Positions 3,062 to 49,240 of a DNA stretch of 64,000 nt are shown here, one piece after another. The stretch comes from a virus. Within the stretch, counting starts at the first letter, position 1; every line of letters starts with the position of its first letter. The notes beneath the pieces are model-generated. The model was not told the origin of the DNA, did not search any database, and was given only the letters and a program-made list of their open reading frames with translations. The stretch is from the IMG/VR virus record IMGVR_UViG_3300028584_001238; one strand, written 5' to 3'. The position numbers were made by a program, and so were the translations under genes.

Positions 3062-3709
3062 TTAAATATTAATCATGTCAGTTAAATCACCAAGACGTTT
3101 GTAGTCAATATCACTACTATTTTCATCAATATTCCAAACCTTTAAAAGTCTGGTCTTATAAGTTAACAAATCACTAAAATAGTTTGAACCATTTGCATGA
3201 TAGACGGCTTTAAATCCAGACGGTTCATAACCATGTTGAATAATGACATCTTTTGTTGTGATGTAAATAGACTCTTCTGATTCAATAGTGGGATTTAAGT
3301 CAAGATGAATCATCATATTATCACACTCAACATTATATTTGAAAATAATAGAAGGTTTGATATTGTCTAAAATAGGATAGAATACGTCTAGATCCCATGT
3401 TGTAAAACGTAAGGCGTCGAAAATATAAAAGAAAGAATTCATCTCTTTTACAAACTCATTAATCATCGGATCATTGAGTTTGGAAACTAAAAGACCATTT
3501 TCAAGATGCAATAAATTTTTAATACCAATGTAGAGATCGGTTTGGTTTAAAGCATAAATATCGACTGGATAATCCCCAGAAGCCACATAGTCTCCGTGGC
3601 TTTCACGAGTGACATTAGTAAAGTCAATACCAAATTTAGCGACCATAATTTTCCGTGCAGACTCAATACTGGTAAGATGGATGGGATCAGATTCGTGATA
3701 GCTTCTCAT
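3062..3709 (-). CDS. hypothetical, paralog family A, MxxI-tagged
   Basis: Ends DYKRLGDLTDMINI. Confidence 0.8.
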   Translation of the reverse strand: MRSYHESDPIHLTSIESARKIMVAKFGIDFTNVTRESHGDYVASGDYPVDIYALNQTDLYIGIKNLLHLENGLLVSKLNDPMINEFVKEMNSFFYIFDALRFTTWDLDVFYPILDNIKPSIIFKYNVECDNMMIHLDLNPTIESEESIYITTKDVIIQHGYEPSGFKAVYHANGSNYFSDLLTYKTRLLKVWNIDENSSDIDYKRLGDLTDMINI

Positions 3710-4332
3710 ATCATCACCATATCATTAAGTGCAGTTAATCTGACAACATCGTCCATTGTCATCTTTTTAGATTTACAGTAATCATGCACAAAATGGAACG
3801 CTTTATCAATTCCATATATTGATTGAAAAGCATCACCAATATAGGAGATTTGGAATTCCTTTTGACACCCCGGCAAATCAATCTCATCCAGAAACACAAA
3901 CTTTGCATAATGGGGGTAAGGAATAGCCTTAAAAATAATTTGTGGGTTCTTGATTGTATAGGTGACAACAAATTTAAGTGTGAACTTAGTATCTTCGAAG
4001 AAATGGATATGTTTACCACCCATTGTCTTCAATTTAACCACATTAAGCACCATAGCTCGCTCATTTATGTCATCAACAATGGGCTGAAGGTTAGAGCCAG
4101 CTTTCTTTAAAGTGAGATTTTGACCATCAAAGCCTATGCTTGATGTGAAAGTGATATTGGCACACTTATTAAAGATATAGATGCGAGCTGGGCCAAGCGA
4201 TGTCTTGGCTGTATAAATAGTATGTTGATTTTTAACCAAACACATACTGGTAATATCAATGTCATAGACAGATTTCATACGGTCCACAACTGTCTTCAAT
4301 TGTTCTTCATGTGCCATGCAATAACACTCCAA
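3706..4332 (-). CDS. hypothetical, divergent family A member, MxxI-tagged
   Basis: Ends RLTALNDMVMI; ATGA overlap with the next gene; true start may be MAHEEQ. Confidence 0.75.
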   Translation of the reverse strand: MECYCMAHEEQLKTVVDRMKSVYDIDITSMCLVKNQHTIYTAKTSLGPARIYIFNKCANITFTSSIGFDGQNLTLKKAGSNLQPIVDDINERAMVLNVVKLKTMGGKHIHFFEDTKFTLKFVVTYTIKNPQIIFKAIPYPHYAKFVFLDEIDLPGCQKEFQISYIGDAFQSIYGIDKAFHFVHDYCKSKKMTMDDVVRLTALNDMVMI

Positions 4333-4374
4333 AAAGTTTAGTTGATTATAGCATAAAACTAAATTAAAGACAAT

Positions 4375-4415
4375 AAAAATGCCAACGTCACATCACTATG
4401 AGTTGGCATTTATTT
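4375..4415 (-). terminator. intrinsic terminator of the ncRNA transcript
   Basis: AATGCCAAC...GTTGGCATT inverted repeat followed by a T-run on the minus strand, just after the CCA. Confidence 0.7.
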
Positions 4416-4421
4416 AAAAGT

Positions 4422-4487
4422 TGGCCCACCACAACGGAGTCGAACCGTTCCCTTTAGCTTTTAGAGGGCCAAGGTCAGCCTTAGTGG
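4422..4487 (-). tRNA. D-armless tRNA-like element, anticodon CUA, encoded CCA
   Basis: CCACUA/UGGUGG acceptor, UUGGC-c-CUCUAAA-a-GCUAA anticodon arm, AACGG-UUCGACU-CCGUU T-arm, G discriminator plus CCA; only ~8 nt where the D-arm should be. Confidence 0.6.
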
Positions 4488-4850
4488 CAGATTTTGTTGC
4501 GAAAACAATCATAATCATGGTGTGCTATTACGCCAAAAGAGAATTCAGCCTTACCATTTCTGGGGTGCCTCCTTACTTGACCAAGACCACAACCACGGCA
4601 AATTCTTACATTATTGCAAGAACTGGGCGTTTTTGGCTGAGACGTTTTGATCTGCAAAATCTACTTTAATGTGGATTCGATTTCGACAAACCGTGGCTCA
4701 CTTGTCACCGATACCTTTAAATGACCGCTAAATCATTTAAACCCGATGCTTACCATCACTGTATCCCAAACACCTGTGGCAACCGCTCTACTCATTAAAA
4801 GATGGCTGCTTTTAAGCCCACTTTCCAAGATTACATCATTGCTTTACAAC
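4422..4850 (-). ncRNA. structured ncRNA: split 23S rRNA H42-H44 (L11-binding) mimic, ornate insert and tRNA-like 3' end
   Basis: Minus strand GGAAAGUGGGCUUAAAAGCAGCCAUCUUUUAAUGAGU (within 4832-4790) and GCGUAAUAGCACACCA (within 4533-4513) match 23S nt ~1051-1108 with compensatory changes; nested helices with G-U pairs on this strand; promoter and terminator flank it. Confidence 0.8.
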
Positions 4851-4856
4851 GAGGCC

Positions 4857-4885
4857 ATTATACGACAATTCATGGCCTTTGGCAA
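4857..4885 (-). promoter_or_regulatory. sigma70 promoter of stable-RNA type
   Basis: TTGCCA-17bp-TATAAT, then GC-rich discriminator GGCCTC; A-tract upstream. Confidence 0.8.
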
Positions 4886-4904
4886 CACCTTTTTCATCAA
4901 AAAA

Positions 4905-5462
4905 TCATTTATTTTCGTAGGAATCGACAACATCTTTATGATTTTTAGCAATCGTATCAAAATTGAATGTCTTTTCGTCTTCGACATACTTTCTGATGGC
5001 ATTAATGAATTCTACCGGAATCATCTGACCATTAATAAAGTTTTCTGTTGGCATGTTTTCATAAAAACCACCCAAATAAAATTCAATCCCTTCTGTTTGA
5101 ATTTCAAGTAAACGAGCCAAGGGCTGACCTAATTGACCTGAGAACTTGTAAGTGTAGAATGCGTCAGGTTCTGGAATAATTTCACTCAGGAAAAGCGATT
5201 CTTTCTCTGGATGATTGAATATGTAATAGATGAAAGAAAACACGAGAGAAGGATACTGCCGACGAAATTCTTGGTCATCATTCTCATAAGCTTTAATCTC
5301 TTTCAGTACAAGTTGTTTGATGTCACCATTACGAACAAATACAGAAGCCTTACGCAATGCTTTACGAGCATCACGGTAATTTAGATAAAATGTTTCTGCT
5401 TTATCAACATATTCATTGATCACTTTAATGGATTCAATAACTGACATGTCTTTTGTAATCAT
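4905..5462 (-). CDS. hypothetical protein
   Basis: 185 aa ORF, GAGGA RBS. Confidence 0.75.
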   Translation of the reverse strand: MITKDMSVIESIKVINEYVDKAETFYLNYRDARKALRKASVFVRNGDIKQLVLKEIKAYENDDQEFRRQYPSLVFSFIYYIFNHPEKESLFLSEIIPEPDAFYTYKFSGQLGQPLARLLEIQTEGIEFYLGGFYENMPTENFINGQMIPVEFINAIRKYVEDEKTFNFDTIAKNHKDVVDSYENK

Positions 5463-5524: not shown

Positions 5525-6490
5525 TTAACACTTTGCCATTTCAATGACAGGTTTAATATTGGCTTTAAAATATTCATAATATTCTTTTGTTAACGCCACC
5601 GGAACATTATCAATAATTTCATAATTTGATTTAAAGTCTTCAATAAATGGTAGTAAATATGAGACAATCGTTTTTTTAACATCATTATTAAAACGAGAAT
5701 ATTCATTAAAAATAATAACGTCATTGTGAATTAATCTAGTATTTAAAACAAAACCACAATAAAATTGAATATTCTCACTAATAATTTGTTCTTCATCATT
5801 TGAATTAATTAAACTCTCTGCAACATTGATTTCATGAACTTTATATTGTTCTGATGTAAGTAGTCTAACTTGTAATTCAAGCTTTTTACTTTGATTTTGT
5901 TCAAATTGTTTAGAGTGAATGGTAGCCGTTGCCTTGTCAAATGACAGCAAAAAAGAAACAAAAGGAAAAATGCCCTTCATGCTTGAACTTTCATAACCAA
6001 TTGATTTAATAATACTGTTCACATCATAATTAGACTCATTGATAAGAAGATAACTAGGAAGATGATTTAACATATTTTTGTTGTGAGACAAATCAAGGGT
6101 AGTTTTGGATGAATCGATCAGCAACATATCAGCATGTTCTTTAAAAAATAACATAGATGTTTCGGTTAATGACGAATAAATATGTTCAAAAACAATCATA
6201 GAAATTGGAAGAATATTATGAAGGTCATCATAATACTGATTTACATCTTTAATAAGTTCTTTTATTGTATCTTTTCCAATTATTCCACGACTTTTTCTTA
6301 AATGAACATTAATGCTCGAAATTATAATATCTTTATACTCATCAACATTACTATGTGTTAAATGATAGATTTGAGCATTATCAAAACCTAATCGTTGGTT
6401 TGTTTCATCAATAAAAGACAAAAGGTTAGCAGACAAGGTTCTTTTAGACGCCTTCTTGAGAAATTGTTTGTTATGTTGAATGATTTGCAT
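5525..6490 (-). CDS. hypothetical, tag variant (EMAKC)
   Basis: 321 aa ORF, GAGGT RBS, ends KPVIEMAKC. Confidence 0.75.
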   Translation of the reverse strand: MQIIQHNKQFLKKASKRTLSANLLSFIDETNQRLGFDNAQIYHLTHSNVDEYKDIIISSINVHLRKSRGIIGKDTIKELIKDVNQYYDDLHNILPISMIVFEHIYSSLTETSMLFFKEHADMLLIDSSKTTLDLSHNKNMLNHLPSYLLINESNYDVNSIIKSIGYESSSMKGIFPFVSFLLSFDKATATIHSKQFEQNQSKKLELQVRLLTSEQYKVHEINVAESLINSNDEEQIISENIQFYCGFVLNTRLIHNDVIIFNEYSRFNNDVKKTIVSYLLPFIEDFKSNYEIIDNVPVALTKEYYEYFKANIKPVIEMAKC

Positions 6491-13496: not shown

Positions 13497-13573
13497 TGGC
13501 CTCTACGGTTGGATTCGAACCAACGACCGTTCGCTTCGGAAGCGAGCACTCTATCCAACTGAGCTACGCAGAG
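13497..13573 (-). tRNA. tRNA-Arg(CCG)
   Basis: 77 nt cloverleaf: CTCTGCG/CGTAGAG acceptor, TAGCTCAGTTGGATAGAG D-arm, loop TTCCGAA, GGTTCGAATCC T-arm, encoded CCA. Confidence 0.93.
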
Positions 13574-27546: not shown

Positions 27547-28879
27547 GGTTTCTAACTGTCCATTCATTCTCTGTTCAAACCTGATCATTTACTTTTTTTG
27601 CTCTTGACTTTATTCTATTTAGTTCTATAATTATCTGAATTAAATAGGGTTATTGATGATTAAATCTCATAAAATTGAACTGAAGCCAAATAAGTCTCAA
27701 CTGACTTATTTAAGCCAATCTGCTGGTACAGCTAGATTTGCTTATAATTGGGCTTTGTCTCAATGGATAGATGATTATGAATATTATCAAAAACATCCTT
27801 TTTCTTGTTCCATTTCTCCCGCTTCAACTCGTTATGAAGGTGAATTAAGAAAACGTCTAAACTCCATTAAAAAGAAAGAATTTCCTTGGATGTACAACGT
27901 TTCCAAATACGCACCACAACAAGCTATAAAAAATTTAGGTGCTGCGTTTGTCAATTTCTTTGCTAAACGTGCTCAATTTCCTAAATTTAAAAATAAATAT
28001 CATCACGATTCTTTTGAAATTGGCAATGATCAATTAAAAGTTGATGGTCGGTATTTAATCATTCCTAAGTTAAAACCGATTAAAATGAAAGAATCATTAC
28101 GATTTAATGGTTCTATCAAAATTGCTGTTCTGTCCAGAACGGCAGGTAAATGGTTCGTGTCTCTTTCTATTGAAGTTGATGACGAATCCATTGTTCATAG
28201 CAAAAACCACGCTATTGGTATAGATCTTGGTATTAAAGCATTTGCAACGTACTTTGATGGTGTTAAGCATTGGAATTCTCCAACGCTTAAACCTTATCGA
28301 ATATTGCAAAATAGAATTAAAGTCCTTTCAAGACAACTTTCAAGAAAGGAAAAAGGTTCTAACAATCGTTATAAAGCAAGAGTTAAATTGGCTAAATTAC
28401 ATTCACGTATTGCCAATATTCGTAAAGACTATTTACATAAACTCACTCACTTTTTAACGAACAACTACTCTATTATTGGTATTGAAACACTTGACGTAAA
28501 AACTATGTCTAAGAATAGACTTCTCTCAAAGTCTATTCTTGATGCAGGATTTTATGAATTTTCAAGACAATTACAATATAAGTCTAATTTATATGGATCA
28601 ACAATAATTAAAGCCGATAAGTTTTATCCATCGACAAAACTCTGTTCAAAATGTAATTATAAATTAGCCACACTAAGTTTAAGTGTTAGAGCTTGGACAT
28701 GTCCAAGCTGTAATACTTACCATGATAGAGATGAAAATGCTTCCACGAATTTATATAATTATGCTGTTAGTTCAACAGTGAAAGTTTGTGGAGAGATGGT
28801 ATAAATAAGCGATTATTTATACCACTTATTGAAGCAAGAAATTAATGATGATCAGATTTGATCAGATTTTTTAGAACGG
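27547..28879 (+). mobile_element. non-autonomous IS607-like element carrying only tnpB
   Basis: GGTT at both junctions (27547-27550, 28878-28881); right end AGAACGG with repeated GATCAGATTT, inverted near-copy AAACCTGATC near the left end; no transposase ORF. Confidence 0.75.
27653..28804 (+). CDS. tnpB: RNA-guided endonuclease TnpB
   Basis: N-terminal HTH (HKIELKPN...ARFAYNWAL); RuvC D in GIDLGIK, E in IGIETL, D in DRDENAS; Zn finger CSKC/CPSC. Confidence 0.95.
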   Translation: MMIKSHKIELKPNKSQLTYLSQSAGTARFAYNWALSQWIDDYEYYQKHPFSCSISPASTRYEGELRKRLNSIKKKEFPWMYNVSKYAPQQAIKNLGAAFVNFFAKRAQFPKFKNKYHHDSFEIGNDQLKVDGRYLIIPKLKPIKMKESLRFNGSIKIAVLSRTAGKWFVSLSIEVDDESIVHSKNHAIGIDLGIKAFATYFDGVKHWNSPTLKPYRILQNRIKVLSRQLSRKEKGSNNRYKARVKLAKLHSRIANIRKDYLHKLTHFLTNNYSIIGIETLDVKTMSKNRLLSKSILDAGFYEFSRQLQYKSNLYGSTIIKADKFYPSTKLCSKCNYKLATLSLSVRAWTCPSCNTYHDRDENASTNLYNYAVSSTVKVCGEMV

Positions 28880-48547: not shown

Positions 48548-49240
48548 TTACCCCATATAGCTTGGACGGACATTAGGTTGTAGTTTACCATTTTGAACAG
48601 CTTTTTTCAACCAATGTTCGGAAGTATCTTGAACATGATTGGCCCGAACAAATTTAGCCACACACTTAGTGAACTCACTCCGCATAAAACCTTCTTCTGT
48701 CCTAATCACGTAACCTTCGGAACGTGTAGTGTCCAATTCGTTCGCAATTTTTTTCAAAGCTACTTCGTCGTAGATGCCACGGTAAAGCACTTTTGGCATT
48801 GGCAAGTCGAACAAGTTAGCATAACTCACAATGTCTTCATAATCTAAGCAGTAGTCTTCTTCACTACCTACGATATCTTCCCACATTGAAAACAGGTAAA
48901 AATACCCTTCCAGTGAGTAATCTGGATATTCAATAGCGTGCTTAGCGAACAAGTTCTCACCTACGAGCTTCATACCTTCTGGAATGTCGAATTTAAGGAC
49001 AGCATGCATAGTCGCTACCCAAGAACGTGTCCAGTTGAATTGACTATCAAGACTACGAGCATGGTAGTAAGTAGAAGACAATGTAGTATTCTCACCATCC
49101 AGCTTTTCAGTGACCACAATGAATTTTCCATGAAAGTGGCTCATGGATTTAAACATTTTGTCATCTGACTGAATAGCCAAGCTCCAAGGCACATGGTAGG
49201 TCTTGGGATATTTTTTCTTGGATGTTTTAATTTTGCTCAT
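48548..49240 (-). CDS. ATP-dependent RNA ligase family protein
   Basis: KYPKTYHVPWS, motif I TEKLDGEN, GE, motif IV EGYVIR, motif V AKFVR. Confidence 0.88.
   Translation of the reverse strand: MSKIKTSKKKYPKTYHVPWSLAIQSDDKMFKSMSHFHGKFIVVTEKLDGENTTLSSTYYHARSLDSQFNWTRSWVATMHAVLKFDIPEGMKLVGENLFAKHAIEYPDYSLEGYFYLFSMWEDIVGSEEDYCLDYEDIVSYANLFDLPMPKVLYRGIYDEVALKKIANELDTTRSEGYVIRTEEGFMRSEFTKCVAKFVRANHVQDTSEHWLKKAVQNGKLQPNVRPSYMG

Follow-up and report, generated by a model that had tools for sequence, protein, structure and literature searches.

The 64,000-nucleotide stretch of viral DNA considered here (IMG/VR record IMGVR_UViG_3300028584_001238), part of a large phage-like element that is uncultured, the whole of which stretch is referred to below as the window, carries on its minus strand an RNA gene of roughly 480 nt (from ~4850 to ~4372) whose outer portions together read as a copy of the GTPase-associated centre (GAC) of 23S ribosomal RNA (rRNA), split by an insert of 256 nt. 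The RNA gene occupies the 572-nt gap between the minus-strand open reading frames (ORFs) 4905-5462 and 3706-4332, neither of which has a Pfam or PHROG family match, and it exceeds the span 4513..4832 in which a first-pass annotation, made from the sequence alone, had recognised a stand-alone mimic of this centre. Two further ORFs overlap it, at 4421-4669 on the plus strand (82 aa) and at 4481-4657 on the minus strand (58 aa); both are mechanical calls and are probably not genes.

All parts of the unit lie on the minus strand, and are described here in that direction with E. coli numbering for the rRNA. A sigma-70-type promoter, TTGCCA-17-TATAAT (4857..4885; 11 of 12 matches), is found as the annotation had described it and gives a predicted start near 4850. 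The 5' leader (4833..4850) is predicted, in the minimum free energy fold, to pair with a 22-nt linker on the far side of the element (4491..4512), which would produce a longer closing helix. Stem P1, which closes the element and corresponds to the top of H42, has its 5' strand at 4825..4832 (E. coli ~1048-1055) and its 3' strand at 4513..4520 (E. coli 1104-1111), with seven of the eight positions paired and one U.U. Within it follow the H43-like hairpin (4799..4823, E. coli 1057-1081) and the junction corresponding to 1082-1090 (4790..4798), where A1084, A1085 and U1090 fall at 4796, 4795 and 4790, respectively. The insert enters between 1090 and 1091 and is closed by helix Pi, whose 5' strand (4786..4789) pairs with 4538-4541; it comprises one or more variable arms (4579..4785), common only to the window and its close relative L007, and a conserved arm (4542..4578) which is identified both by a covariance model and by covariation. 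The 3' strand of Pi together with a conserved UUUG linker (4534-4537) makes up 4534..4541, after which come the H44-like hairpin and its 3' flank (4521..4533, E. coli 1091-1103), the 3' strand of P1, the 22-nt linker, a 69-nt tail which we read as tRNA-like (4422..4490) and, in the predicted fold, a terminator-like hairpin with a U run behind it (4372..4410).

The resemblance to rRNA was assessed against the 23S copy of E. coli rrn operon L055. Minus-strand positions 4832-4790 and 4533-4513, which had been quoted exactly in the first-pass annotation, align to 23S 1051-1108 in two gapless blocks with 44 of 58 residues identical (31/40 over 1051-1090 and 13/18 over 1091-1108), where a hand count had given about 41/58. 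The window contains an 18-nt H43 core at one place only, with a single mismatch, and none of 100 shuffles contained it with two or fewer mismatches; a 14-nt H44 core also occurs once with one mismatch, and was matched in one of 100 shuffles. The residues to which attention had been drawn are as described, since A1067 (4813), A1095 (4529), U1060 (4820), A1088 (4792), G1071 (4809) and C1072 (4808) are all kept and position 1086 deviates, being U (4794) where E. coli has A. The compensatory pairs that had been listed stand in part: 1058-1080 (A-U versus U-A) and 1090-1101 (U-A versus A-U) change on both sides relative to the E. coli copy, whereas the comparison of the pairs at the top of H42 is less clean, this copy differing at 1051-1056 from the sequence on which the first-pass annotation had relied.

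In a blastn comparison of the whole window with the E. coli rrn operon, the matches obtained were 4792-4827, one tRNA-to-tRNA match and one weak chance match, and no rRNA-like sequence other than 4792-4827 was detected in the 64 kb, in keeping with the earlier remark that no rRNA flanks the unit. At Rfam gathering thresholds the sole match in the 64 kb was to one tRNA, with none to large-subunit (LSU) rRNA, and relaxing the limit to E values up to 10 across 3800-5400 returned chance-level matches far below gathering scores, again without LSU rRNA. Neither setting produced a match to RNase P, tmRNA, GOLLD, ROOL or a ribosomal protein leader. With no contiguous and no flanking rRNA, the locus does not belong to a bacterial LSU rRNA gene. 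The H43 region of a relative matched 23S rRNA in 5,426 of 5,426 E. coli genomes (100% over 36 nt), and the query from the window had no match in E. coli genomes.

All pairs of H43 and H44 form in the window, and the positions of the tertiary contacts are occupied as in the ribosome, with C1072 facing C1092-G1099 and G1055-C1104 facing A1085. The second of these contacts is the A-minor triple G1055=C1104/A1085 which an extract of PMC1919483 describes in the GAC. The element is one of a family of RNAs. When cultured phages were searched by blastn, the 3' part of the unit matched Pseudomonas phages Astolliot and UNO-G1W1 and Aeromonas phage 4_4572, all three of which have the same layout with a tRNA gene 8-25 nt beyond the element. 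Viral, genome and metagenome collections were scanned with sequence patterns, which gave 6, 24, 4 and 17 loci, and after removal of duplicates and of 13 GC-rich coding false positives (L012, L015, L017, L021, L026-L028, L032-L036 and L038) the family comprises 27 distinct members, namely the window and 26 others from cultured Pseudomonas or Aeromonas phages and uncultured contigs. Common to all of them are P1 (the H42 top), the H43-like hairpin, the 1082-1090 junction, the insert closed by Pi, the UUUG linker, the H44-like hairpin and the 3' strand of P1, and the window contains every one of these parts. The insert is always located at 1090/1091 and ranges from 101 to 443 nt, while between 34 and 49 of the 58 positions are identical to E. 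coli 1051-1108. The plasmid collection gave no match, and the arm pattern was found at four loci in 185,579 bacterial species genomes, of which only L037, on the contig of a metagenome-assembled genome, is real.

Covariation was examined in 14 whole elements, aligned without the window and 12 longer members for the sake of shortness, using as the counted structure the GAC secondary structure combined with an RNAalifold prediction. Of the cells in this alignment 93.5% are paired, and both-sided change is seen in 20 of 32 pairs; a covariation score of 0.515 was obtained, compared with 0.172 in shuffles (0 of 500 reaching 0.515) and with 0.09-0.16 when the partners are slid. P1 is 82% paired with both-sided change in nine of its ten pairs, H43 and H44 are 100% paired and also show both-sided changes, with three covarying pairs in H43, and the 4-bp helix Pi is 100% paired with both-sided change in three of four. 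Across the family the pair 1082-1086 covaries as well, being U-A, A-U or C-G.

The tertiary contacts covary or are retained in the same manner. Position 1072 and the pair 1092-1099 correspond to a base triple of the GAC. In the 27 members, a set collected by way of the insert rather than of H43, it occurs as C(C-G) in 24 and as U(U-A) in three, with no mixed case. In 65 elements found through H43 alone, C(C-G) occurs in 54 and U(U-A) in eight, and two of the three exceptions look like wrong H44 calls. A Fisher test on this switch gives 9e-9, a value that ignores relatedness, and the eight U(U-A) elements differ from one another in their stems and in the lengths of their inserts. No variation is seen at A1084 and A1085 in the family alignment and G1055-C1104 is kept in 13 of 14 elements, both of which fit the A-minor triple given in the extract of PMC1919483, while A1067 is kept in 27/27 and A1095 in 26/27 members. 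To judge from these patterns, the secondary structure with its compensatory changes and the tertiary contacts would be those of the GAC fold, and together they argue strongly that the RNA is a structural copy of this centre.

The family has not been described in Rfam or in the literature searched, a search whose scope did not extend to subscription journals; the first-pass annotation, too, had not recognised it. The available extract of the genome paper of member phage pf16 (PMC5587285) covers the tRNAs of that phage and does not mention an rRNA-like RNA. On the strength of these searches, the family appears in none of the databases or papers covered. The Astolliot element is immediately preceded, on its upstream side, by another GAC-like element of divergent sequence (L001 ~1061-1390), which has U1072 together with U-A at 1092-1099 and whose insert is of another kind, without the conserved arm, such that this phage carries two tandem copies from different subfamilies.

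A wider search with the bare H43 15-mer indicates that such elements extend well beyond the 27 members. It is estimated to occur in 360 stretches of the viral collection; among the 120 of these that were listed there is no true rRNA gene, and no match to rrn is longer than 111 nt. In 65 of 112 distinct loci the H43 sequence is followed by an H44-like hairpin and then by the complement of its own P1, with inserts of 18-356 nt, and this proportion is a lower bound, as 40 loci had flanks of only 300 nt; the other loci include chance matches inside genes. As the conserved arm is present in only 14 of 100 loci found through H43, other subfamilies must carry other inserts, and the UUUG linker is found in these subfamilies also. 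Cultured phages also carry it, among them Xanthomonas phage XacN1, Cronobacter phage GAP32, Pectobacterium phage CBB, Serratia phage BF and several jumbo phages of Erwinia and Yersinia, in nearly all of which the site is unannotated, and in two of which it is annotated as a 'hypothetical protein'. Judging by this looser motif, there would be several hundred related split copies among viral contigs. Five viral contigs (L095, L101, L115, L118 and L163) possess an extra hairpin, inserted at the 3' side of H43 and ahead of the UUUAAAGAGU junction, which points to a second tolerated insertion point, and two others (L158 and L074) hold unsplit, minimal GAC-like elements in which H43 and H44 are contiguous and for which there is no long rRNA match.

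The insert itself has a conserved proximal portion and a variable distal one. The conserved arm forms the proximal 3' part and consists, in order, of AAGU, the 2-bp stem a, a 3x3 internal loop, the 3-bp stem b, an asymmetric loop, the 3-bp stem c with a four-base cap (GAAA in the window), UAAG, the return strands and GAA, whereas the distal part is variable and is shared only between the window and L007. Stem a covaries fully and the third pair of stem c covaries too, while the central pair of stem b changes from G-C to U-A or A-U in variants that have diverged. A covariance model (R1) of the 3' half, with 68 positions and built from 25 members exclusive of the window and L007, matches the window at 4585-4518 with 88.9 bits (E 7e-21) over model positions 1-68 of 68, and this is its sole strong match in the window, which by this score is a member of the conserved-arm subfamily. 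Inserts and arms yielded only chance 10-14-mers when compared by blastn with the E. coli rrn operon. Two likenesses were considered and set aside: that of the insert to RNase P or to the sarcin-ricin loop was rejected on the grounds that the positions concerned differ between members and that there is no similarity to the rrn operon, and a K-turn reading of the arm was dropped because its strands do not fit the motif. On a metagenome contig (L040, element 242-760), an additional insertion of ~190 nt separates the H43 hairpin from the AAUGAGU junction and is present alongside the usual insert.

Comparison with the nearest relative, the 161.7-kb viral contig L007, reveals the RNA as an island of conservation. 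The GAC RNA is identical at 324 of 338 positions (95.9%) and the linker with the tail at 88 of 91 (96.7%), while the promoter region is 70% identical with both hexamers kept, the terminator region 86% and the downstream gene 58-68%; the upstream gene is not shared. Overall, identity in the flanks lies between 45 and 70%, and in the flanking genes between 45 and 68%. ORF 4905-5462 on the minus strand is missing in L007, where the counterpart of window positions 5525-5584 abuts the promoter region of the RNA, and the gene content around the conserved RNA thus differs between the two.

As regards the limits of the transcription unit, the terminator proposed in the first-pass annotation is borne out by the fold, which gives a long hairpin (4410-4378) and a U run, although a pattern scan for terminators made no call, the loop being too long. 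The next gene downstream has its own promoter at 4373-4345. In the tail at 4422-4490, an acceptor stem of 7 bp that includes G3.U70 is combined with a very small D arm, a CU-CUA-AA loop, a T arm of canonical form and a GCCA end that is encoded; G.U as the third pair of the acceptor stem is the alanine identity mark. The tail is not called by ARAGORN and has no Rfam tRNA match at E values up to 10, and as only the acceptor stem, the T arm and the CCA end look canonical we do not classify it as a tRNA. Its one change relative to L007 falls at the discriminator base. In the relatives, a same-strand tRNA gene lies at most 25 nt from an end of the element in 12 of 26 cases, and within the examined flanks in 19 of 26. 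Because of this proximity in the 12, tRNA processing enzymes would free the RNA in these phages, and the tail would serve the same end in the window, where it is likely to be an end-forming signal of the RNase P type. Recoding of TAG by a tail with a CUA loop was also contemplated and there is no sign of it, as TAG ends 13 of 82 ORFs and the coding density is 86% under the standard code.

Elsewhere the window, which has a GC content of 33%, is largely uncharacterised, with almost all genes lacking a family match. Of 84 ORFs of at least 75 aa, 83 were scanned and four Pfam matches were obtained, to a TnpB-type transposase, an RNA ligase, DUF7448 and, weakly, a methyltransferase, while the one PHROG match was to a virion structural protein. 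The transposase is of the TnpB/IS605 OrfB type with a Cas12f-like TNB domain (27653-28804, plus strand), and the RNA ligase domain protein (PF09414) is encoded at 48548-49240 on the minus strand; phage RNA ligases are associated with the repair of cut tRNAs. The only called tRNA of the window, found by both Rfam and ARAGORN, is a tRNA-Arg at 13500-13573, 9 kb from the RNA.

Based on these findings, the function that we favour, with a probability of about 0.4, is that the RNA captures host uL11 off the ribosome and presents the face formed by A1067 and A1095 to the usual ligands of the site. An extract of PMC1802607 locates thiostrepton at the loops of A1067 and A1095 and identifies the 58-nt domain as the site of the uL11 C-terminal domain. 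Capture of uL11 is favoured because the fold and its exposed loops are both conserved and because no uL11 gene was found in four phage records: the uL11 domain PF00298 is absent from 4/4 member phage records examined, three of which are at least 90% complete, and the uL11 partner would therefore have to be made by the host. In the proposed sequence of events, the transcript would start near 4850 and be trimmed by RNase P or a similar enzyme at the tRNA-like tail, whereupon the two ends of the RNA would adopt the self-closed tertiary fold of the GAC and bind host-made uL11; the uL11-bound RNA might then divert or shield factors directed at the GAC during infection, with the conserved insert arm acting as a second contact surface or as a folding aid. 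In a more ambitious form of this proposal, the free GAC replica and host uL11 would constitute a decoy particle that intercepts GTPases, stringent-response enzymes or toxins directed at the GAC, the inserted arm would be a second docking surface, and the tail, with its G3.U70 and CUA loop, would trim the RNA and might even be charged; in this form the proposal is doubtful.

Several observations weigh against uL11 capture. The window has a U.U at 1082/1086 and another in P1 where its relatives have standard pairs, and A1095 is replaced by C in one member (L023). The insert enters inside the 5' strand of H44, at 1090/1091, where the docking of uL11 or of factors might be affected, and the transcript is predicted from the promoter and from conservation. 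Most uL11 is held in ribosomes, which poses a stoichiometry problem for any uL11 sponge. Nor does co-occurrence point to a partner, as the translation GTPase domain PF00009 (GTP_EFTU) and the RelA/SpoT domain PF04607 (RelA_SpoT) were each found in 0/5 member phage records, and bL12-like matches (Ribosomal_L12) only in 8 of 44 records of phages with a GAC RNA and patchily at that, two of them being full length and possibly derived from the host and six partial. Two small phage proteins, at L177 1396-1809 (minus strand, 137 aa) and L176 1255-1626 (minus strand, 123 aa), contain a G-L-x-L-(K/R)-x-A-K-D motif like that of the bL12 C-terminal domain. Finally, the tight linkage to tRNA genes could signify a tRNA-related task in place of one at the GAC.

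That last possibility, in which the free RNA would bind, protect or help to mature phage tRNAs, draws on the fact that the GAC fold touches the elbow of the incoming tRNA on the ribosome; the tRNA genes next to so many elements, with the tRNA-like tail of the window in the same place, are what one would expect of it. Such adjacency is nevertheless explained equally well by shared transcription and punctuation by RNase P/Z, no tRNA is nearby at 7 of 26 loci and the only called tRNA of the window is far from the RNA, and we hold a tRNA-linked role to be improbable. Somewhat less unlikely is a protective decoy, which would soak up attackers of the GAC, such as toxins of defence systems or competitors that modify or cut H43 or H44, or thiopeptide antibiotics, so that the ribosomes on which the phage depends are spared, and which would account for the conservation of the exposed A1067 and A1095, beyond the structural core, and for the presence of many members in tRNA clusters. 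Phage RNA decoys are known, as is an ADP-ribosylating toxin that acts on H44, and phage tRNAs may serve to counter defences that target RNA. However, no anti-phage toxin directed at the GAC was encountered in the literature searched and, since the family is found in phages of very different hosts, the attacker would need to be equally widespread. The conserved factor-facing loops would also suit an RNA that traps translational GTPases or RelA-type enzymes directly, without uL11, and so alters elongation or the stringent response. In the extract of PMC1802607, however, isolated GAC RNA is known chiefly as a site for uL11 and thiostrepton, and the GTPase and RelA/SpoT domains are, as noted, absent from the five phage records; a direct trap of this kind must be rated a long shot.

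Two further explanations carry far less probability. Messenger leaders that mimic rRNA are known (an extract of PMC3616713), and the element might accordingly be a cis-acting, uL11-sensing leader of the downstream gene after the fashion of ribosomal protein operon autoregulation, but this is very improbable given that the RNA is set apart from the next gene by a terminator-like hairpin and a second promoter, that the product of the downstream ORF is not a ribosomal protein and is without a Pfam or PHROG family, and that the neighbours in relatives are tRNA genes or unrelated ORFs. The sequence similarity to 23S rRNA could in principle denote rRNA debris or a captured fragment that drifts without function, a view that is already contradicted and retains next to no probability: compensatory changes keep every helix and the base triple, the plan is common to Pseudomonas and Aeromonas phages and to many uncultured lineages, conservation of the RNA greatly exceeds that of its flanks, with no other rRNA nearby, and contaminating rRNA is itself unlikely, as an rrn match of more than 111 nt is seen in 0/120 listed loci. 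The first-pass annotation had likewise preferred a selected mimic to debris and had named a search for homologs as a check; relatives have now been found in phages and none in plasmids, and the covariation of helices and base triple across the 27-member family, the retention of A1067 and A1095 and an island of ~96% identity in diverged flanks all favour selection. Capture of host uL11 remains the reading that we prefer for the window and its relatives.

If this interpretation is correct, phages possess, besides tRNAs and a few ribosomal proteins, a replica of one of the ribosome's functional centres in the form of an independent RNA; such replicas would occur in viral contigs by the several hundred, and also in cultured phages, including pf16, Astolliot, Aeromonas phage 4_4572 and the jumbo phages GAP32 and CBB. 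This would be a novel type of interaction between phage and host, located at the uL11/GTPase site, which is likewise involved in thiopeptide action and in stringent-response signalling, and the family would supply RNA structural biology with naturally occurring variants of the GAC that have a point at which insertion is tolerated. The cultured members make the claim open to bench study.

Among known systems, the large RNAs GOLLD and ROOL and the small stable RNAs known as T4 species 1 and 2, from a phage tRNA cluster, resemble the element in being structured RNAs borne by phages, often beside tRNA genes, yet no Rfam model for GOLLD, ROOL, tmRNA or RNase P matches the phage RNA and none of these is a copy of rRNA. 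The placement of a tRNA or tRNA-like fold directly after a structured RNA recalls 3' processing of the MALAT1/mascRNA type and tRNA punctuation; MALAT1/mascRNA is eukaryotic, however, and cleavage of the phage RNA is only presumed. The leaders of the L10 and L1 ribosomal protein operons are likewise RNAs that copy, off the ribosome, an rRNA site for protein binding, but they are cis-acting parts of mRNAs that precede ribosomal protein genes in cellular genomes, whereas the phage RNA is free-standing, with a terminator-like hairpin, no ribosomal protein gene nearby and no match to an Rfam leader. The closest counterpart is the GAC of 23S rRNA itself, from which the phage RNA differs in lying outside an rRNA gene, in being closed by a short stem of its own, in accommodating a 256-nt domain at 1090/1091 and in having its own promoter, and with which it shares 44 of 58 residues, the same helices, A1067, A1095, U1060, A1088, A1084 and A1085, and the same covariation between 1072 and the pair 1092-1099.

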